Below, one piece after another: positions 4,543 to 52,732 of a stretch of 52,732 nucleotides of DNA (within the stretch, counting starts at the first letter, position 1; every line of letters starts with the position of its first letter). The notes below the pieces were generated by a model. It saw only the letters and a list, made by a program, of their open reading frames with translations, made no database searches and was not told the origin of the DNA. The position numbers were made by a program, and so were the translations under genes. The stretch is from a virus (taxonomy: Duplodnaviria > Caudoviricetes): positions 1-52,732 of IMG/VR virus record IMGVR_UViG_3300042294_004185. The stretch is one strand, 5' to 3'.

Positions 4543-4558
4543 AACTATTTTTGTTGTA

Positions 4559-4588
4559 AATATAATGATAGGATTTTAAATCCCCACG
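4559..4588 (-). promoter_or_regulatory. -33/-7 promoter variant (CGTGG-N19-TATATT)
   Basis: Same spacing as the other copies; spacer contains a near-palindrome (GGATTTAAAATCC). Confidence 0.55.
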
Positions 4589-4593
4589 TTAAA

Positions 4594-10962: not shown

Positions 10963-11965
10963 TTTCTTCTAATCTAATTGTATTGAATATAATATTTTTA
11001 TCTGGGAAAACCAAGTTTATTTGGCCAGTGTTTTTCTTATCTGATTTAATTGTTTTTATAATGTTTTCAATATTAAACCATTTTTTATCTATATTAATAT
11101 GTTCAATTAATGATAAACCTATTTTATTAATAATGGTATAGTCTAAATTTGTTTCTATATTTAATTCTTTAAGTATATCATTTATAATTAAAATACCTAA
11201 TATCACTGCTGAACCATGAGGGAGTTTATAATTGGATGTAATTTCTAATGCATGACCAAAGGTATGTCCATAATTTAATAATTTTCTTAAACCTTGATCA
11301 AATTCATCTATTTCAATTATTGATATCTTATACTCTAAACATTCTCTAATTAATTGATTTAAATTTTCTTTAGAAAAAATATTTTTATTTAATTTATTTT
11401 GTAATATTTTAAATTTAAATACTTCTCCTAAACCACTTTTAAAATCTTCTTCACTTAAGGTTTGTAAAAATTTATCACAAATTAATATTTCTGTTGGAGG
11501 ATAAAATGTACCTAAGATATTTTTTATAGAACTAAAATTAATAGATGTTTTTCCCCCAACACAACTATCACATTGAGATAATAAGGTAGTAGGCACAAAT
11601 TTGTATTTAATACCTCTACTATAGATACTACAACAAAAACCAGCTACATCTTGTAAAGTACCTCCCCCAATAATAACAACTTCTGTATTAGATTTAAATT
11701 GGTTTTGAGTAAAGGTTTTTAATAATATTTCAATATGGTCAAAAGATTTTGTAGTTTCATTACATTCATAAAATATTTTATTAGATAAAGAATTAAAATC
11801 GTAATATTTTTCTAAATTTTTATCTATAATAAACCAACTTTGTTTATTTAAATTATTTAATAAATCTTCTATAGTATTATGAAAAGTTACTTTATAATTA
11901 TTTAAATTAGATTTAACTTTTAGAGGTACAAGAGTACCCTCCGTCAATTGTAATGTTTTGTCCAT
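10916..11965 (-). CDS. 3-dehydroquinate synthase-like sugar-phosphate cyclase
   Basis: GGGTLQDVAGF, PTTLLSQCDSCVGGKTSIN, LNYGHTFGHALE, HGSAV; start codon uncertain because of overlaps. Confidence 0.85.
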   Translation of the reverse strand: MDKTLQLTEGTLVPLKVKSNLNNYKVTFHNTIEDLLNNLNKQSWFIIDKNLEKYYDFNSLSNKIFYECNETTKSFDHIEILLKTFTQNQFKSNTEVVIIGGGTLQDVAGFCCSIYSRGIKYKFVPTTLLSQCDSCVGGKTSINFSSIKNILGTFYPPTEILICDKFLQTLSEEDFKSGLGEVFKFKILQNKLNKNIFSKENLNQLIRECLEYKISIIEIDEFDQGLRKLLNYGHTFGHALEITSNYKLPHGSAVILGILIINDILKELNIETNLDYTIINKIGLSLIEHINIDKKWFNIENIIKTIKSDKKNTGQINLVFPDKNIIFNTIRLEENEIIRLCNTVFKRFI

Positions 11966-23482: not shown

Positions 23483-25421
<1,939 letters not shown>

Positions 25422-25425
25422 ATTT

Positions 25426-25746
25426 TTAAATTCCTAAATTAACTAATTGATTGATTTCTTCTTGAATGTTTTTAAACATTTCAATATATTCTTGAATTGA
25501 ATTATAACTTTTTTTATCATTAACTTTATTACGAGCAATTGTCTTTAAACAATTTCCAAAATTACTATAATGACCTAATGCTTTAGTATATTCTTTACCA
25601 GGTTTATTATCTTCAGTATATCTAGTATCTGGAGTAATTGTTTGATAAACAGTATAGCAGTAAGCATCTTTACCTATAAAATAAGGTTCGATTCTAGGAT
25701 CTCTGATAACTGTGATTGATGATAATTCTTCTTTTTCTTTTGTCAT
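25426..25746 (-). CDS. Hypothetical protein
   Basis: 106 aa; first gene after the promoter at 25769. Confidence 0.6.
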   Translation of the reverse strand: MTKEKEELSSITVIRDPRIEPYFIGKDAYCYTVYQTITPDTRYTEDNKPGKEYTKALGHYSNFGNCLKTIARNKVNDKKSYNSIQEYIEMFKNIQEEINQLVNLGI

Positions 25747-25759
25747 AACTTATGTTTGT

Positions 25760-25984
25760 TTATGTGGTAATATACGAATCCTTTGTTACTTCTCCAAGTT
25801 CTTCTTCAATAATTTGTGCTTCTTCAATAAATCTAACAAACCATAAAAGACCATCTTTTCTAAAGACGTGTGTACAATCATTTTTCCACTTAATGTATTC
25901 TACATCTATTTGTTTATTTTCGGGAATTTGATCAATTACTTGATACAAAGTTCCATCACTCGTTTTAATTAAATGTAATTTCAT
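25760..25984 (-). CDS. Hypothetical protein
   Basis: 74 aa; AGGTTATG start context. Confidence 0.55.
   Translation of the reverse strand: MKLHLIKTSDGTLYQVIDQIPENKQIDVEYIKWKNDCTHVFRKDGLLWFVRFIEEAQIIEEELGEVTKDSYITT
25769..25798 (-). promoter_or_regulatory. -33/-7 promoter (CTTGG-N19-TATATT) upstream of the groES/groEL run
   Basis: CTTGGAGAAGTAACAAAGGATTCGTATATT, embedded in the 3' end of the 74-aa ORF. Confidence 0.7.
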
Positions 25985-25989
25985 AACCT

Positions 25990-26497
25990 GTGAAACCTTA
26001 GGAGAACGGTTTTACTTAATTGTTAATAGTTTTGTTTTTGTTTCTTTACTGTGTGGAATGGAAATTTTTAATAAGCCATTTTCCATTTTGGCTTCAGATT
26101 GTGATAAGTCAAATTGTGAGGAAATTTTGTAACCAATATTAATAGAACGTTTAGCTATTCCTCTATGAATGTATCTAACTAAACCTAAGTCCTCAGTATC
26201 AATACCTTCAGTTTTTGCTTTATCATAACTGATTTTAAGGATGTCTCCTTCAACCCCAATTTCTAAATCTTCTTTGTCAAGACCGGTACAAGCCACTTCA
26301 AAGTGGAGTCCATCTTTATTTTCGTAAATGTCAATTGGGTGTGGGATTTTTGCTTCTTCAGCAGGGAAGAAGTGTGAGTTCGACTCAAAAAAGTTCTTAA
26401 ACAGAATGTCGAACGGTGTTAGTTCTCTTTCAAATAATTTTAAATTTGTCATAATTTTTATCTCCTAAGATGATTTTTGTGTTCCCTAAGGTTTCAC
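25990..26497. repeat. Inverted repeat flanking hsp20 (GTGAAACCTTAGG 25990..26002 / CCTAAGGTTTCAC 26485..26497)
   Basis: Perfect 13-bp reverse complement, extendable by 4 bp across a 1-nt bulge; further 9-bp partner TCTCCTAAG at 26461..26469. Confidence 0.9.
26012..26452 (-). CDS. Small heat-shock protein Hsp20 (alpha-crystallin domain)
   Basis: PIDIYE, YIHRGIAKRS, AKMENGLLKISIP. Confidence 0.92.
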   Translation of the reverse strand: MTNLKLFERELTPFDILFKNFFESNSHFFPAEEAKIPHPIDIYENKDGLHFEVACTGLDKEDLEIGVEGDILKISYDKAKTEGIDTEDLGLVRYIHRGIAKRSINIGYKISSQFDLSQSEAKMENGLLKISIPHSKETKTKLLTIK

Positions 26498-26521
26498 TTT
26501 ATCGGTTATACATATATGGTT

Positions 26522-27262
26522 TTAATAATCCTTCGCAATTACATAATACTCGCTTTTAATATTTCCGTTATCAAACGCAAGTTTCATGATTCCATCTAAA
26601 TTAATTCCCATAACACAGTGTGCTACGTCTTTATTACAATACATAATTTCTTTAATCATGTTTGAATCATAATTAACTTTAAAATCATTTGGCAAATCAT
26701 GAGTTTCAATATCTGGTAAGTAAAATGATACTTTATTTGAGTATTCAATATTACCACCAAATACCATTTCCAATTGTAAATCACCATCAGCGTTAGTAAA
26801 TGGTTTAAATACAACAGTATCGGTTTCGGCCAAAGCAGATTTTGCTCGCACTATAGAATTTATACTTTCGTTATCTAACGTAGCTTCAATATTATATGCT
26901 TCATCACCAACATACTCACCTGCTGTAGGGATAATCATTGTATCTGCTAAAGCATAATTAAGTGTAAATTGATTATCTGCTATAATAAGCTTTGTAATTA
27001 ATTTATGTTGTTTAACATATTCCAAACTTAAAGGACCATTTGTAATAGCTAATAGTTTAAGCAATTGAGTAGTATTACTAATACCAATTGATGAATCCTC
27101 TAAATCAAAATTGTCACAAGTAACAACTCCAATCATTGATTTATCAGGAGCTTTAAATTTGATTGTTAATTTGTTGTCTTGAATATCCCACTTAACGGCC
27201 TCATTTTTACCATTTAGGAAATACTTTGAAATAATTGAAACTAGATCTAATTTATTTATCAT
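26522..27262 (-). CDS. Sliding clamp (T4 gp45/PCNA-like)
   Basis: 246 aa beta-rich protein directly downstream of PolB; C-terminal GIMKLAF...SEYYVIA pattern. Confidence 0.75.
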   Translation of the reverse strand: MINKLDLVSIISKYFLNGKNEAVKWDIQDNKLTIKFKAPDKSMIGVVTCDNFDLEDSSIGISNTTQLLKLLAITNGPLSLEYVKQHKLITKLIIADNQFTLNYALADTMIIPTAGEYVGDEAYNIEATLDNESINSIVRAKSALAETDTVVFKPFTNADGDLQLEMVFGGNIEYSNKVSFYLPDIETHDLPNDFKVNYDSNMIKEIMYCNKDVAHCVMGINLDGIMKLAFDNGNIKSEYYVIAKDY

Positions 27263-27264
27263 GT

Positions 27265-29859
27265 TTAAAATTTAAAAAACTTGTTTATGTTTGGATTAAG
27301 TACTACAGCACCCCATCCTAAATCGGAATATAATGACTCTAATTTGTTTTTCATAACTGAATCAAATAAGCCGTCTCTATCTATATATTTTTCTACAAAA
27401 TCTCTGATTTCCTGAGGGTCATTATAACCGTTAAATCCTATAACATCAATTCTATAAGGATTATCCTTTAAATAAGCAATAAACATTTTATCACCAATTT
27501 GAAATTTAGGATATTTTTTGTCTAAACCTTTAAATTTTAAAATATCGTTATAGTAAATTGCTGCTTTAGTATTAATAGGGCATTTTAGTCCTAATTTAGA
27601 AAATATTTCACCAGCACCTGGAGGTCCAGCTAAATATTCACTCATTTTCTTTAATCCTGTAGGTTTAAGGATTTTTTCCCAACCAATTGTTCTTAATTCG
27701 TTTCTAAAATCTAATATTTGTTTATCAATATCTGATTTAGGTTTACCAAACATAATTTCATTAATAATATGTTCACCGAATTTTTTAAACAATGGTGGGA
27801 AATTTGATTTCATCAAATCTAATCCTTTAACATCTAATTCATCTGTTGGTACACCTTCTTTATTAACAATATGTTGAGCGTATCTTCTCTTACCTGCAAA
27901 GTAACCTCTATCAAGTACAACCTCTTGTTTTAATTCAAAGTAATGAGGTTCATTAGGATAACTAATATTAAATAATTCTTGTACTAGAGTATGTAAATTT
28001 TCATTTGCTAATTTTTGAATTTCAGTAGCAACTTTAAGTACCTCTTGTACAATTGTTTCTTGATCTGCTGTAACTAATTTAGGGTTACGTTTTAAGATTA
28101 AATCTTTAACCTGAATGAATAGTGAATCGGTATCTGATGTAACAATATAATCTTTATCTTCTGTACCTAATTCTTGATTTAACCAATTATTTACAAATAC
28201 AATAGATTCTTGAGTTAAGCGTTGACCTGTTAAAGTAATTGCTTTACTAATAAATTTATTTCCATCAGTGTATCTCCAACCATTAATAGCAAATACCCCG
28301 TAAACGTCATTTAATTTAATTTTATACGCGTGTTGACGCCTATCGTAAAAAGATCCCATAACAGGGTCGTTATCTTCTTTATATGCTTTTTTCATGAGTT
28401 TTTTATACTCTTGACGTTTAGCAAACCAGTCAGATAAAATTTCACATACAACACTTGATTTGTCTTTACGGAACATCACTCCAGGTGCTGATATAATTAA
28501 ATCATTACCTTCAATAATTTCTATTAAGTCACCTACTTTAACTTGTGTATGAGATAATCTACGATCCTTTTTAACTTTTTCAATAGTAACAACAGTGTTA
28601 GAATCCATTGCTTTAAGTTCTTTAAGTGACCATTGGTTATCAAATTTACCTCTATTTACAACACGTCCAACTAACGTTTCAATACCCATATTAAGTGAAC
28701 GAATAATAGAAGGATACAAAGATGTAAAATCCAAGTCAATAACCCACTCATATAGTCCTGGTGTTGGATCTTTTAAATAACCACCAGCATATTCTTCTTG
28801 TAATGTTTGAAGTGCTGGATTATAAGTAGTAGGTTTATTAGGTGAAACTATACCTTTACGTTTTAGGTAAGTTAAAATAGCACCTTCATTTAATACTGTT
28901 GAAAAATAAATCGATTCATAAGTTGTATGACATAAGTGACCAATTGTAACTGTCAGCTCCATAAACTTCATTCGTTTTTCAAGCTCAACAATAATTTCAA
29001 CGTCACGTAAGTTATACTCAATAAACTTATCTACGTCTTCAGCAAATAATCTATCAAGTGAACCTTGATACTCAATCTTTTCTAATTTAGCATATTTTTT
29101 ACCAATATCACCTAAACGATAAGATGGCTCTTGTTTTGTAATAAACTTTTTAAACAAAAGCATATAATCAAGATGGTTAATACCTCCTAAGTTAACAGGT
29201 TGATCTTGATACTGAGGTGTAAATTTGATTTTACCAATTGGGGATAAAGTATTGGCCAAAGATTCGCCCATTACTTTTTTAATACGATAATATAAATAAG
29301 GTATATCAAAGAAACCACTATTCCAACCTGTAATAATTGTAGGGTCTAATTCATACCACTTATCTAAAAATCCACTCAATAATTCTTTTTCAGATGTATA
29401 AGGAATAATAATTTTGTCTTCAGACTCGGCTTTAGACATTTTACCTTCTTTATCTAAAATTAAACAGAAATATTTTTTAGAATTATGGTCATATAAAGCA
29501 ACAGCTGTTATTTCACCTTTAGGATCTTTAATATTTTCCTCAGTTAATGCTCCCGCTACTACACACTCAATATCAAGATAAACTATGTTATGGAATTTAG
29601 GTGTATCGTCAGATTCGTAATAGTAGTCTACTAACAGGCGAGTTAATTTATCAACGTCTTTTTCAAAGTATTTAGGGTCTTTCCAATCATCCATTCTTTT
29701 GGTTGGAGACACCCTAGTACCTTCTAACGTTTCAAACTCGCCATCAGGATCAGGTTGATATAAGGTAGGCCAGTGTTGTAAGGTTTTAAACCCTTCCCAT
29801 CTGTCATCTCTTAAATAATACTGTTTTTCTTCCTTATCGTAGTAGACCGCTTGATACAT
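27265..29859 (-). CDS. DNA polymerase family B (T4 gp43-like)
   Basis: Exo DIE, GWNSGFFD, YNLRD; Pol DFTSLYPS, KIKLNDVYG, SDTDS. Confidence 0.97.
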   Translation of the reverse strand: MYQAVYYDKEEKQYYLRDDRWEGFKTLQHWPTLYQPDPDGEFETLEGTRVSPTKRMDDWKDPKYFEKDVDKLTRLLVDYYYESDDTPKFHNIVYLDIECVVAGALTEENIKDPKGEITAVALYDHNSKKYFCLILDKEGKMSKAESEDKIIIPYTSEKELLSGFLDKWYELDPTIITGWNSGFFDIPYLYYRIKKVMGESLANTLSPIGKIKFTPQYQDQPVNLGGINHLDYMLLFKKFITKQEPSYRLGDIGKKYAKLEKIEYQGSLDRLFAEDVDKFIEYNLRDVEIIVELEKRMKFMELTVTIGHLCHTTYESIYFSTVLNEGAILTYLKRKGIVSPNKPTTYNPALQTLQEEYAGGYLKDPTPGLYEWVIDLDFTSLYPSIIRSLNMGIETLVGRVVNRGKFDNQWSLKELKAMDSNTVVTIEKVKKDRRLSHTQVKVGDLIEIIEGNDLIISAPGVMFRKDKSSVVCEILSDWFAKRQEYKKLMKKAYKEDNDPVMGSFYDRRQHAYKIKLNDVYGVFAINGWRYTDGNKFISKAITLTGQRLTQESIVFVNNWLNQELGTEDKDYIVTSDTDSLFIQVKDLILKRNPKLVTADQETIVQEVLKVATEIQKLANENLHTLVQELFNISYPNEPHYFELKQEVVLDRGYFAGKRRYAQHIVNKEGVPTDELDVKGLDLMKSNFPPLFKKFGEHIINEIMFGKPKSDIDKQILDFRNELRTIGWEKILKPTGLKKMSEYLAGPPGAGEIFSKLGLKCPINTKAAIYYNDILKFKGLDKKYPKFQIGDKMFIAYLKDNPYRIDVIGFNGYNDPQEIRDFVEKYIDRDGLFDSVMKNKLESLYSDLGWGAVVLNPNINKFFKF

Positions 29860-40397: not shown

Positions 40398-40422
40398 AAC
40401 CTTTATTTCTTATTACTCGGTG

Positions 40423-40452
40423 AATATACAAAAGGGATTTGACAAAGCCAAA
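40423..40452 (-). promoter_or_regulatory. -33/-7 promoter overlapping a terminator
   Basis: TTTGGCTTTGTCAAATCCCTTTTGTATATT. Confidence 0.75.
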
Positions 40453-40456
40453 TCCC
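40430..40456 (-). terminator. Intrinsic terminator after the EF-hand membrane protein
   Basis: GGGATTTGGC-TTT-GTCAAATCCC hairpin (one GU pair) followed by TTTT. Confidence 0.65.
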
Positions 40457-40479
40457 CTCGCAAAGTTTTTAAAAGTTTT

Positions 40480-48078: not shown

Positions 48079-48105
48079 GATTTTATTTATTAGTTTAATG
48101 TCGGA

Positions 48106-48135
48106 AATATAAGAACGAGGTATTGTATAACCAAG
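48106..48135 (-). promoter_or_regulatory. -33/-7 promoter for ssb-uvsX
   Basis: CTTGG-N19-TATATT. Confidence 0.7.
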
Positions 48136-48633
48136 TTAAAGTTCAACAATTTTAAAAACTTTTGTATTCAGTTGTTTCAACTCATTATGGTTGGTTAACA
48201 AAATACAGTTTTTATAGTGTTGCCAATTTACACGGTAAGATGGATCAACCACACCACCGTTTAATTTTTTTATTAGATCATTTAACGCATTAATAGTATA
48301 AAGCGTATTAGTTTCTTTCTTTCTATGTACTAAGATTGTATTTTGAGGAATACCCTCAACATTACCTTGCTCTACGTTGTATGTAACAACATACTCGTCT
48401 GTACTTTTAACATAAAGTATAAACATCTTATTATACATAATTGAATAAGACTTAGTCAATTCACTAATCAGTGCATCTAAATCCTCTAGTCCTGTAAATG
48501 TACAAAATAACTTATTGTTCACGTCTTTTATGTTTGTCGAATCGAAATCGTATCCGTCATACATATAGTCATTTTTCTGTAAAATCATATGTTTTTCCAT
48601 AACTTGTTTTTGTTTGTAACCTGTATTTATCAA
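48136..48633 (-). CDS. Conserved phage hypothetical protein
   Basis: KLFCTF...HRKKETNTLYTINALN; true start likely downstream (for example GTG at 48522) since the track start overlaps polA. Confidence 0.65.
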   Translation of the reverse strand: MINTGYKQKQVMEKHMILQKNDYMYDGYDFDSTNIKDVNNKLFCTFTGLEDLDALISELTKSYSIMYNKMFILYVKSTDEYVVTYNVEQGNVEGIPQNTILVHRKKETNTLYTINALNDLIKKLNGGVVDPSYRVNWQHYKNCILLTNHNELKQLNTKVFKIVEL

Positions 48634-49858: not shown

Positions 49859-50519
49859 AACCTTGATTTGTATCGTTAATATATGAACCCGAATTTAAAG
49901 TTCCAAGTTTAGGATAAAAATTAAGATAACCTCCACTTAATTCTATGTATCTGCTAAAACCAAATGCTTTATATTTTGCCTCTACTTGTTCAACAACGAT
50001 TTTATTTGTTCTAGCAACTTTTTCTTTTTCGCCTATTAATTCCCAAGGAATAGTTAAGGCATAATAAAGTTCCCAATAGTAATCACTACTGTTTTGAACT
50101 AAATTATCATAAGTATCTTTATTAATTTCTATAAAAACATAGTCATTAATTTGTTTAGCAAAGTATCTTTGAAATTCTCCTAACTCATAATCTTGTTGAG
50201 TAGGTTGTGGATAATAAGGAGTTGGTAATTTTCTATCAACAGGGCTTTTACCTAAAACTCGTAAATAATCATCTGCTAGTAAATCATTTTGAGTAGTAAT
50301 AGTAACATATAAAGGATTACTTGCTATTTCAATAGGACTTATTTCGGCTTTAATTATTTCTCTTGGAACACCATCGTTTTGATTTTTTCCAGTAAAAAAT
50401 GTTCCGTTATACAAACTATAATAATATCCAACATAGGATTCACCTGTACCTTTAATTACATATTCATCACCATTAGTGTAAAGGTCAGTTATAATTCTAT
50501 TTTTTGGGTAATAGGCCAT
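49764..50519 (-). CDS. Hypothetical protein (probably structural module)
   Basis: 251 aa; YYPQPT..DY..G.F.RYF motif; coupled to the large upstream ORF. Confidence 0.6.
   Translation of the reverse strand: MAYYPKNRIITDLYTNGDEYVIKGTGESYVGYYYSLYNGTFFTGKNQNDGVPREIIKAEISPIEIASNPLYVTITTQNDLLADDYLRVLGKSPVDRKLPTPYYPQPTQQDYELGEFQRYFAKQINDYVFIEINKDTYDNLVQNSSDYYWELYYALTIPWELIGEKEKVARTNKIVVEQVEAKYKAFGFSRYIELSGGYLNFYPKLGTLNSGSYINDTNQGYVLDYRNRRIDGLSSPQDDTRGIRRDNSVSR
49878..49907 (-). promoter_or_regulatory. -33/-7 promoter for the family-A polymerase, inside the upstream CDS
   Basis: CTTGG-N19-TATATT followed by AAATCAAGGTTATG. Confidence 0.7.
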
Positions 50520-52732
50520 TATTTAGTTGTTTTGGTTTGTTGAGCTGTATTTCCTAGGAATGATAAGTCTAAGAATTCTTTTACTTCATTAGGGGTAGTA
50601 GCTGTTGCACGTTGTCCTTTAGCTGATACTGTTAAACTATCTATTTTAGTTGTCCATTGATTACTAGTTATAGAATGTGTAATACCTTTAATAAGAAAAT
50701 CAATTTTGCCTTGTTTTTTTAGGCTATTTTTTTCTATAGAGGGTCTATAACTATAAGGTAAAATAGATTCTTCAACAGCAAAACGTTGATAGTTTACCAT
50801 TCCAGATAATCCATCCATTTCTAATGACATATTGAACGGAATAAAGAATGGAGCTGGTACTAATTCTTTTTCAGCATAACCTCCCATAACATATAAAGAA
50901 ACATCTCTATTAATTGATCTTAAAGTATCAACGTTATCTTTTTGGTACATAAAATCAATGTATAATTCTCTAAGAAAAGCATACATTTTTAACATATTCT
51001 GATTGAATAATACTTCTGGTGAGTCTGGTTTATTAGCTACTTTTCCACCTAAGCTTTCTGCGTCTAATTTATATGTTATAATTCTATCTTTTAGTCCTGT
51101 GTTTAATTTAGATAAAGCAGTAGCATTTTCACCTACAATATTTCCTTTTGCTTGGGCAGAAATAGTTGCCATTGCTGCCATATTAGGAGGTAATTGTACT
51201 TGGAAATCAACATTTCTTAAGAAACTACCTTTACCTGTACCTACTCCAGGTTCTACTCCAAAAGCTTTAAATATTGCTATATCAGGAGTATCATCTTTAG
51301 ATCTTTTTAAAATATTATCATCTATAATTTTTACCTCATTTTCTTCAGCATCATATATTGCCTGTAATTTATTAACATTACCTAAAGTATCATTAATATT
51401 ATTACAAAGTTCATTTAAATATTTTAATAAATTTACTTTACCATTTACGTCAACATTACTTGCTAATAATTTAGCACAGAAATCAATATTAACCATAATA
51501 TTCATTAATTTCCCTTGAAAAGGATTATTTTCAAATAAGTAATTACTTAAATTAGGTAAATTAGGAGTATTCTTTGTAAAAAATTCCCAACCATTTCCTT
51601 TTTTATCTTTTCCAGACATTGGAATTAAACAAACAAAAGGATCACACGATACTTGAAGAGGCCAAGACAAACAACGATTTAATTCAGGATCAGTATCAAT
51701 AGTAAACATGGCCACAGCATTAGGAGGTAATGGAGTTATTTTACCCGCTAATGTTTTTGAAAATTTATCATTAACAGTTGGTTGTTTAGTATTAACTGTT
51801 GGATTTTCGTTATTTTTAAGATTCTGTTGTTTATAAGCTGCCTCTTTTTGAATAGGATTTAAAGCATTATATTCTTTAGAACCAACTGTTGGTACATTTG
51901 ATGTTTGATTTTGAACAATTGGAGTTAAATCATAATATAATAGATTTTTTGTAATCCAATCTAATAAGTAACCAAATCTTACATAATATTGATCAAACTG
52001 ATGTTCTGAAACGCCTGTTTCTCCTGAGTTTGATGATTTTGCTTTATAAGATAAAACACAAAAATTATCAGGATCTATTTTTTTATTTGCTTTTAATCCA
52101 TCAATCCACCCCCATAAAACAGCATTTAATTTAGTTTTACCAGCACTTTCTTTAGCTGATTGTGGTGCCAATTCTTCTTTTTCTTTAGCTGCTTCTACGG
52201 CACGTTGAAGTTCTCTAAACTTTTTTTCAGCTGCTTCTTTTTCTTGATCTAATTTATTTCTATTAGCTTCTAATTCAGCATCCTTTTTTTCTTGTTGAGC
52301 TTGTTGTTCTATAAGTTTAACATATTGTCTAGCAATCAATATCATTTGATTATATGTTGTTATAGCTACTGGAGATAAACCAGTTATTACTACTTCAACA
52401 CCATTAGCATTAGTAATAGTTGTTCTATATGGTAAACCAGATTGAGAATCAAGTTGTATTCCATCAACAGTTTGGGCTCTTTCAAAAAAGTCATTAGGAT
52501 CTTTTCCCTCAATAATTTGATTTTGATAAACTTGAAAAGTTTTTTCTAATTTTGCAAGTTCTGTTTGATCTTGAGGAATAGCGAGAAAAAACTCTAAACG
52601 TGTTGTGTTAATATCGTCACCTAAATCATCATATTGTCTTTGTAATGCCTCTTGTTTTGCGGCTATTGATTCTGATTCTTTAGCTGAGTTATCTGTTTTA
52701 GAATTTAATTCTTTGTCTTTGGCTTCAAAAGC
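50519..52732 (-). CDS. Large virion-type protein, 5'-truncated (possible tail/baseplate hub)
   Basis: Frame stays open well upstream of the track ATG at 52345 toward the window edge; C-terminal LEMDGLSG...FLIKGITHSITSNQWTT resembles hub-protein ends. Confidence 0.55.
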   Translation of the reverse strand, partial: AFEAKDKELNSKTDNSAKESESIAAKQEALQRQYDDLGDDINTTRLEFFLAIPQDQTELAKLEKTFQVYQNQIIEGKDPNDFFERAQTVDGIQLDSQSGLPYRTTITNANGVEVVITGLSPVAITTYNQMILIARQYVKLIEQQAQQEKKDAELEANRNKLDQEKEAAEKKFRELQRAVEAAKEKEELAPQSAKESAGKTKLNAVLWGWIDGLKANKKIDPDNFCVLSYKAKSSNSGETGVSEHQFDQYYVRFGYLLDWITKNLLYYDLTPIVQNQTSNVPTVGSKEYNALNPIQKEAAYKQQNLKNNENPTVNTKQPTVNDKFSKTLAGKITPLPPNAVAMFTIDTDPELNRCLSWPLQVSCDPFVCLIPMSGKDKKGNGWEFFTKNTPNLPNLSNYLFENNPFQGKLMNIMVNIDFCAKLLASNVDVNGKVNLLKYLNELCNNINDTLGNVNKLQAIYDAEENEVKIIDDNILKRSKDDTPDIAIFKAFGVEPGVGTGKGSFLRNVDFQVQLPPNMAAMATISAQAKGNIVGENATALSKLNTGLKDRIITYKLDAESLGGKVANKPDSPEVLFNQNMLKMYAFLRELYIDFMYQKDNVDTLRSINRDVSLYVMGGYAEKELVPAPFFIPFNMSLEMDGLSGMVNYQRFAVEESILPYSYRPSIEKNSLKKQGKIDFLIKGITHSITSNQWTTKIDSLTVSAKGQRATATTPNEVKEFLDLSFLGNTAQQTKTTK

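Follow-up and report, generated by a model that had tools for sequence, protein, structure and literature searches.

We analyzed the surroundings of the small heat-shock protein (sHSP) gene hsp20 in a 52,732-nucleotide (nt) stretch of viral DNA, hereafter the window, which is the complete IMG/VR virus record IMGVR_UViG_3300042294_004185 (52.7 kb, estimated to be ~32% complete, with a G+C content of ~30%). All 74 predicted open reading frames (ORFs) of the window lie on the minus strand, and those near hsp20 follow the order PolB (27265-29859), orf246 (26522-27262), hsp20, orf74 (the downstream 74-amino-acid ORF, 25760-25984), orf106, GroES and GroEL. The hsp20 coding sequence (26012..26452, minus strand) specifies 146 amino acids and matches both Pfam PF00011 HSP20 (E=4.8e-9) and PHROG 432 Hsp20 (E=1.7e-14). 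Its untranslated regions (UTRs), at the 5′ and at the 3′ end, carry two mutually complementary segments, and comparison with related loci makes us highly confident that these form a selected, sense-strand RNA helix that spans the whole gene.

All elements of this locus are likewise on the minus strand and are described here in the order of the mRNA. The 5′ arm of the helix, GTGAAACCTTAGGGAAC (as RNA GUGAAACCUUAGGGAAC; 26481..26497), is separated by an 11-nt spacer from the element CTTAGGAGA (26461-26469), and TAAAAATT stands between the latter and the hsp20 ATG (26452). The Shine-Dalgarno (SD)-like box AGGAG is contained in AUCUUAGGAGAU (26460..26471), which may also form a 4-base-pair (bp) mini-hairpin. 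The hsp20 stop codon TAA is followed by AACC, by the 3′ arm GTTCTCCTAAGGTTTCAC (as RNA GUUCUCCUAAGGUUUCAC; 25990..26007), which thus begins 4 nt past the stop, and then by AGGTT and the orf74 ATG (25984). The two arms pair over 13 perfect bp plus 4 bp beyond a 1-nt bulge (17 bp), and an outer helix adds 7 bp between UAUAACC (26504..26510) and GGUUAUG (25982..25988), the strand that contains the orf74 AUG, in the minimum free energy (MFE) structures at 15, 25 and 37 °C. The long-range helix thereby closes the hsp20 5′ UTR, ORF and stop codon into a loop of ~480 nt. The 3′ arm is in addition complementary to CTTAGGAGA over 9 nt. An earlier note on this DNA had pointed out the bracketing arms, this alternative pairing and the 3′ arm abutting the next start, and every element it listed is present where and as it described. 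Directly upstream of the 5′ arm lies a TATnTAT box (here TATGTAT; 26508..26514), whose conservation across 94 aligned representatives is at least 90%. Although promoter-like, it lacks the canonical -35/-10 form of a sigma-70 site, and a sigma-70 promoter scan calls nothing there; we treat it as a candidate promoter, and boxes of the same class are also found between orf246 and orf74 in some relatives without hsp20. Box, arms, UTRs and gene together make up a 536-nt cassette (25986..26521). No local terminator was found near hsp20, no promoter-like box or T-run was found between the 3′ arm and orf74, and no Rfam family matches the region 25700-26800 of the window at E <= 1.

Judged from the window alone, an inverted repeat of 13 bp could be expected by chance: there are 10 perfect inverted repeats of at least 13 nt within 3 kb, compared with 8.9 ± 3.0 in Markov shuffles, and the 13-mer of the arms occurs only at these two sites in the whole record. 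Support for the helix comes from relatives. Three collection scans with partly overlapping sets gave 179 loci with hsp20 homologues, namely the best 80 of 489 metagenome matches, the best 80 of 449 viral-contig matches and 19 from the first viral scan, and 169 loci including the window were kept for having at least 150 nt upstream and at least 60 nt downstream of the gene. At each locus, a local complementarity alignment between 150 nt upstream and 45 nt downstream was compared with the best of five shuffles. The real flanks score higher in 168 of the 169 loci (median 40; control mean 20.6), and the sole exception, L019 (35% identity), has an ordinary hairpin and T-run terminator instead. Removal of duplicates left 94 different arm alignments with 40 distinct 5′-strand haplotypes, in which widely differing arms such as GTGAAACCTTAGG, ACTTTAGGGAGC, GCAAACTTAGGATGC, ACTCAAGGGTAC, ACTGCGGGTC, GCAGGGACC and ACGGGCACCCC each match their own partner. 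The gene-spanning pairing is clade-specific, and the more distant hsp20 genes (28-30% identity) of cyanophages P-SSM4, S-PM2 and S-SM1 and of Pelagibacter phage Mosig have local hairpins and no gene-spanning pairing. As a separate observation, the cyanophage genes (L022-L025) share a 5′-UTR stretch, AAACTCGCTTA(T/A)(T/A)TAAAGGAG, just before the start codon with a local hairpin ahead of it, unrelated to the gene-spanning helix.

The covariation of both arms across homologous loci, which the earlier note had named as a check, is evident when 91 pairs are aligned on an invariant GG(G)/CC(C) anchor. Positions -9 to +7 around the anchor are paired in 91-100% of cases, with two to four Watson-Crick types each; for example, position -4 is T-A in 33, C-G in 31, G-C in 6 and A-T in 2 pairs, and position +3 is C-G in 44, A-T in 25, T-A in 9 and G-C in 5. 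Over the 14 variable positions, 96.3% of 849 cells are paired, compared with 68.9 ± 1.5% (maximum 73.7%) in 1000 partner permutations; these anchored figures overstate independence, as the alignments were chosen by complementarity and the loci are related. A structure-independent check was therefore made by counting pairs, in a plain MAFFT alignment of 94 full-length representatives, at the positions given by the helix of one relative. Here 66.0% of cells are paired, against 59.2 ± 0.7% after shuffling, and the covariation score is 0.182 against 0.123, with none of 500 shuffles as high in either measure; sliding the partner by one to three columns reduces pairing to 33-47%. RNAduplex energies with free internal loops proved too noisy and were not used.

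An arrangement of this kind could also arise at the DNA level, as the ends of an invertible or mobile segment, as a folded single-strand recombination site of the integron attC type, or as paired operators bound by one co-evolving protein, and inversion and operator sites had both been raised in the earlier note. What speaks for such a reading is the behavior of the cassette. Among orf246 loci with enough downstream sequence, 21 of 78 have hsp20 and 57 do not; in the four closest relatives (L187-L190, orf246 93-95% identical) the junction simply reads TAA-t-ATG. A 244-nt contig from a metatranscriptome library likewise joins 25985 directly to 26522, and we rejected excision or splicing at the RNA level as the origin of this joint, given that DNA contigs of close relatives share the junction. 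In L001 and L206, hsp20 is 96% identical to that of the window, compared with only 81% for the flanking orf246, which suggests exchange of the cassette. By sequence, the 536-nt unit thus behaves as an exchangeable presence/absence module at a constant genomic site within the chaperone cluster. Against a DNA-level role, all 427 neighboring-gene matches are co-oriented with hsp20 and none is inverted, no tyrosine recombinase (PF00589) was found in four records (one 92% complete, three incomplete), and arms of 12-20 bp are short for homologous recombination. Arms as variable as these (40 haplotypes) do not look like the binding site of one protein, and an integron-like cassette was dismissed on the missing PF00589 in these records and on the presence of only one or two bracketed genes per genome. 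In addition, mismatches within the helix are strand-biased: read on the mRNA strand there are 98 G·U and 35 A·C, under a scoring symmetric for G·T and A·C, and in every one of the 91 anchored pairs GG(G) falls in the 5′ arm and CC(C) in the 3′ arm. Neither bias is expected of double-stranded DNA sites, and the first in particular disfavors operators. Because of the G·U bias, the fixed polarity, the co-orientation and the lack of a tyrosine recombinase in the four records, we favor a helix in the sense RNA and regard a DNA-level function as improbable.

The history of the cassette left few other traces. Empty sites in relatives show no fused local hairpin, so there is no direct sign that hsp20 was inserted into a pre-existing stem-loop. 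We also observed the heptamer TAAAACC after both the orf246 and the hsp20 frames (26515-26524 and 26008-26014, minus strand), at the left edge of the cassette and just ahead of the 3′ arm; the AAAACC edge is kept in L001, where the cassette has another gene before it, and the repeat may be a trace of cassette exchange. Metatranscriptome contigs cover hsp20 in part and take in 19 nt upstream of the 5′ arm, the stretches left uncovered being uninformative. Two contigs from RNA libraries end at 26004 and 26009, but they have the length of a read, so that their ends are no evidence of a transcript end.

RNA thermometers such as ROSE, fourU and that of cyanobacterial hsp17 are known to control sHSP genes, and the hsp20 helix shares with them its place in the UTR of an sHSP gene. 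The earlier note had accordingly proposed that the 3′ arm pairs either with the distal 5′ arm or with the SD box, forming a switch or thermometer that would control hsp20 translation. It rightly called the SD box rare: an AGGA, GGAG or GAGG tetramer occurs at -20 to -4 in 9 of the 74 ORFs, compared with 8% of random 17-mers, and AGGAG precedes hsp20 only, with GGAGG before two other ORFs. The competing complementarity of 9-11 bp is also real (-15.8 kcal/mol at 37 °C as an isolated duplex) and conserved within the clade of the window, and anti-SD-like sequences located 3′ can pair in vivo with a ribosome-binding site that is hundreds of nucleotides away (PMC12697547). We folded a 538-nt model of the window transcript at 15-37 °C, where all values are model energies rather than measurements. 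The 13 central pairs of the main helix have a mean probability of 0.995-0.998 over this range (0.995 for the 5′ arm at 37 °C), and the pairing of the SD box with the 3′ arm has a probability of 0.000 throughout. At 37 °C the main duplex has -26.6 kcal/mol, which makes it ~11 kcal/mol more stable than the alternative, and at 55 °C it retains -18.8 kcal/mol. Similarly, the inner part of the helix forms with a probability of 0.83-1.00 at 20 °C in all 15 diverse relatives folded, which have different arms. Between the end of the conserved helix and the hsp20 AUG downstream there are 26-74 nt, and the helix covers neither SD nor AUG, so the hsp20 ribosome-binding site lies outside it; in the window, the start codon of orf74 is paired, within the outer helix. 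Pairing of at least 9 bp between SD box and 3′ arm occurs in just 3 of 94 non-redundant configurations, all of the window type (3 of the 18 with an SD-like box), while two further 9-nt runs are AT-rich matches without an SD, and complementarity between ribosome-binding site and 3′ flank is overall no higher than in the permuted-partner control. In contrast to known sHSP thermometers, the helix is not local, is by its model energies far too stable to melt in the physiological range, does not sequester SD or AUG, and has no match to an Rfam thermometer or any other family, and a thermometer of the ROSE or fourU type was rejected on these grounds. With the main helix dominant in the model and the SD alternative at zero probability and restricted to one clade, the switch or thermometer is unsupported, and we consider it highly improbable. 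Of the original proposal, the genuine, selected pairing across the gene therefore stands, with an RNase III-type stem still a leading interpretation, and control of the SD box falls away.

A second structure in the hsp20 5′ UTR came to light in these comparisons. Most hsp20 loci, among them L044, have a local hairpin ~20-40 nt upstream of the ATG (columns 154-171 of alignment A2) of the form CCGCUG-A-UC-UUCG-GA-CAGC, which has a tetraloop and a bulged A. Its two strands covary among loci (GAGUAGC..GCACUC, GGUGAGC..GCCACC, GUUGAGC..GCCAAC), with compensatory changes in all six pairs called by RNAalifold. The clade of the window has AUCUUAGGAGAU with its AGGAG (26460-26471) where other loci have this hairpin.

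The architecture of the gene-spanning helix is shared widely among the relatives. It is bipartite, with an inner helix of median 12 bp and 57% G+C in a genome of ~30% G+C, a bulge of 1-4 nt, and an A-rich/U-rich outer helix whose equivalent is present in most relatives. The total number of paired positions has a median of 24.5 and reaches at least 20 in 70 of 94 non-redundant pairs. The nearly invariant TATnTAT box immediately precedes the 5′ arm, and the 3′ arm usually starts 4-8 nt past the hsp20 stop codon. Most pairs (81 of 89) have a spacer longer than 15 nt after the helix, and in 69 of 89 a TATATT-type box, resembling those in other intergenic regions of the window, follows the 3′ arm. 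The 9 nt after the inner helix contain 4.95 T on average (~3.2 expected), with at least 5 in 57 and at least 6 in 28 of 91 pairs, and A is enriched ahead of the helix. Eight non-redundant configurations including the window differ from this pattern in that the next ATG lies 4-13 nt past the 3′ strand of the inner helix, with no box and with 3.6 T; in the window, L003, L015 and L016, the ATG of the next ORF is in or directly after the aligned stem.

This majority arrangement raises the main rival to a processing stem, that the helix is solely a split intrinsic terminator. The 5′ arm would be the upstream half, the 3′ half would emerge right after the hsp20 stop codon and the polymerase would halt at the U-rich run, giving an mRNA with paired ends with no nuclease involved. 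Yarnell and Roberts reportedly found in 1999 that the upstream arm of a terminator can be supplied in vitro by an oligonucleotide annealed in trans. The GC-rich inner helix, the flanking A and T enrichment, the promoter-like box that so often follows and the lack of any other terminator near hsp20 all agree with this explanation. The same is true of the hairpin-plus-promoter modules elsewhere in the window, which resemble the PeSLs of T4-type phages, stem-loops that terminate transcription (PMC2839356). However, 6 or more T in the 9 nt are found in a minority of pairs only, some relatives have the next promoter box inside the loop, before the 3′ arm, and a loop of ~480 nt is far outside known terminators, in which it is short (3-8 nt). 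The clade of the window has 3 T in 9 and no downstream promoter-like box, and efficient termination there would silence orf74, GroES and GroEL. A split terminator or attenuator thus fits the majority architecture and not the clade of the window, and as the whole explanation we rate it as possible at about one chance in a few. A post-transcriptional role fits the window better because there is no box or T-run before orf74 and the downstream genes need read-through.

The bracketing is nearly specific to hsp20. Every gene of three records was tested for complementarity between its 5′ and 3′ flanks, with mismatched partners as control and a cutoff score of 30. In the window, hsp20 alone of 75 genes is bracketed (score 37; control maximum 27), and in the 92% complete record G001 it is the sole convincing case among 197 genes (44; control maximum 33); two other genes of G001 with a score of 32 each, below the control maximum, were dismissed as AT-rich matches. 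The third record, G003, has two bracketed genes out of 133, hsp20 (38) and an ORF for an 89-amino-acid membrane protein (42), with a control maximum of 28. This second gene (L005:5779-6048, equal to G003 52078-52347, and also present in L004 and L006) has gene-spanning arms of its own, AAAATTGATGAGTCCTAAATT and AATTTAGGACTCTCAATTTT, with a U·G wobble in the arms of one relative, and a weak PHROG ‘hol-like’ match.

The position of the stem between two reading frames suggests another function, in translation. The helix could join the upstream stop to the downstream start for termination and reinitiation, or a closed loop could return ribosomes that finish hsp20 to its own 5′ UTR. In the closest cassette-free relatives the two neighboring genes meet as orf246-TAA-t-ATG-orf74, a junction typical of coupling, and in the window orf246 stops 11 nt before the outer helix, whose 3′ strand holds the orf74 AUG. 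The eight configurations in which the next ORF abuts the inner helix would suit such coupling, the unit around the 89-amino-acid ORF similarly reaches from an upstream stop to a downstream ATG, and, with no SD enrichment in the phage, internal starts may depend on coupling. Nevertheless, 81 of 89 non-redundant configurations have more than 15 nt before the next ORF, which usually has its own promoter-like box; coupling therefore cannot be the conserved function, and we know of no experimental precedent in bacteria, so that a translational role appears unlikely. A more specific version, for which we see very little likelihood, is that the helix makes the 536-nt insert ‘transparent’ to the ribosome by placing the orf246 stop beside the orf74 start, two codons separated by 1 nt in cassette-free relatives. 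After ending on orf246, a ribosome would open the outer helix, cross the base of the stem and start again on orf74. Ribosome shunting is known from plant pararetroviruses, and such a mechanism, if true, would be its phage or bacterial counterpart, without SD pairing.

Our tentative preference, held at somewhat below even odds, is for an RNase III-class processing and end-protecting stem that in most relatives probably also acts as a PeSL-like attenuator. RNase III stems are known to bracket 16S and 23S rRNA, and the early mRNA of T7 has RNase III sites. The hsp20 helix would be a double-stranded processing and end-protection site like the stems around the rRNAs. Host RNase III, which is assumed because none was found in four phage records, would cut the duplex and free the hsp20 cistron from a polycistronic orf246-hsp20-orf74-orf106-GroES-GroEL transcript. 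What is set free would be a ‘panhandle’ RNA whose ends stay paired and are therefore shielded from end-dependent RNases. In the clade of the window, the same cut would free the orf74 AUG, which the outer helix otherwise keeps paired. The GC-rich inner helix, the U-enriched run and the next promoter-like box of most relatives indicate that there the stem probably also attenuates transcription, in the manner of a PeSL-like stem-loop split around a gene. The predicted duplex of about two helical turns with an asymmetric bulge fits a stem of the RNase III type, which is the favored assignment, and with 17 + 7 bp in the window it reaches the length of an RNase III substrate (~20 bp or more of double-stranded RNA); among the relatives this is uncertain for those extensions that are AT-rich. 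As in the rRNA and T7 sites, a long-range duplex with an internal bulge flanks a functional RNA within a polycistronic transcript. The hsp20 helix differs from the rRNA stems in enclosing a translated protein cistron, and cleavage is here a proposal.

Several points weigh against this interpretation. A role in processing or termination is drawn from sequence and folding models, and the available RNA data are short contigs that cannot show ends. No phage-encoded RNase III was found in the four records, three of which are incomplete. With its median of 12 bp, the inner helix by itself would be a short substrate for RNase III, and the part of the total paired length contributed by AT-rich extensions may be spurious. 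RNAalifold on the blind MAFFT alignment missed the long-range helix and found only the local 5′-UTR hairpin, because MAFFT misaligns the arms between subfamilies. For the attenuator component, the clade of the window is without the U-run, and to our knowledge there is no precedent for a terminator with a 480-nt loop. Finally, nothing in our analysis explains why the bracketing is nearly specific to hsp20.

The hsp20 helix can be regarded as a variant of known interactions of the 5′ UTR with the 3′ UTR in one mRNA. In icaR of S. aureus, the 3′ UTR is said to pair with the SD region, with cleavage by RNase III. In hbs of B. subtilis, a 14-bp interaction between the two UTRs modulates cleavage by RNase Y (PMC5737220). 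The hsp20 mRNA has the complementary UTR segments predicted to pair that define this class. The likeness to the hbs and icaR systems lies in a 5′-UTR segment that pairs with one just past the stop, in the enclosure of a whole small ORF and in a plausible link to a ribonuclease. Compared with these systems, the hsp20 helix is longer (17 + 7 bp), lies off the ribosome-binding site and directly follows a conserved promoter-like box, and its support is covariation in ~170 loci, known here from sequence, rather than genetics in one species. The PeSLs, composite cassettes of stem-loop terminator and early promoter that flank variable genes in T4-type phages (PMC2839356, PMC4122927), share with hsp20 a GC-rich stem adjoining a predicted promoter-like box at the border of a presence/absence gene, and the phage studied here is distantly T4-like. 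PeSL stem-loops are local and form direct repeats on both sides of a gene; the hsp20 stem is split with the gene as its loop, and conserves pairing rather than sequence. Within a limited literature search, which leaves absence unproven, no published case of a covarying helix that spans a phage protein gene came up.

A helix around a whole gene is here backed by natural compensatory changes, with ~40 arm variants in ~170 loci; more than 900 relatives were detected, and these loci come from the 160 that matched best. These variants amount to a ready-made mutational series on mRNA loop closure, from which effects on stability, RNase III processing, long-distance termination and translational coupling could be read. 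They also suggest that a gene cassette moving between phage backbones can bring along an RNA ‘insulator’ of its own. For annotation, the case is a warning that inverted repeats around phage genes can be RNA structure and not DNA recombination sites.

The source of the window is an uncultured freshwater phage, distantly T4-like. This assignment follows from sequence comparison. Fourteen DNA runs hold 0.66-0.95 of the sampled words of the window, 13 of them labelled lake water metagenome and one only metagenome; PolB shares only 28-34% identity with the gp43-type polymerases found in T4-like phages, and hsp20 is only 24-36% identical to hsp20 of cultured cyanophages and a pelagiphage; and a search for DNA similarity of the window to cultured phages gave no match. 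The lack of SD enrichment is compatible with a Bacteroidota host. The chaperone cluster hsp20-GroES-GroEL (23483-26452) adjoins replication genes in an order conserved among relatives, with GroES downstream of hsp20 in 153 of 166 loci and orf246 upstream in 116 of 135. The local modules resembling the PeSL terminator/promoter cassettes of T4-type phages recur at 40398-40479, 4543-4593 and in other intergenic gaps of the window, each with a GC-rich hairpin, a T-run and a (c)gTATATT(c)ac box. In addition, three stretches at 10963-11912, 48079-48568 and 49859-50518 (950, 490 and 660 nt) contain no ATG-started ORF of at least 50 amino acids in our crude gene call, and may encode RNAs or genes that are small or begin with a different start codon.

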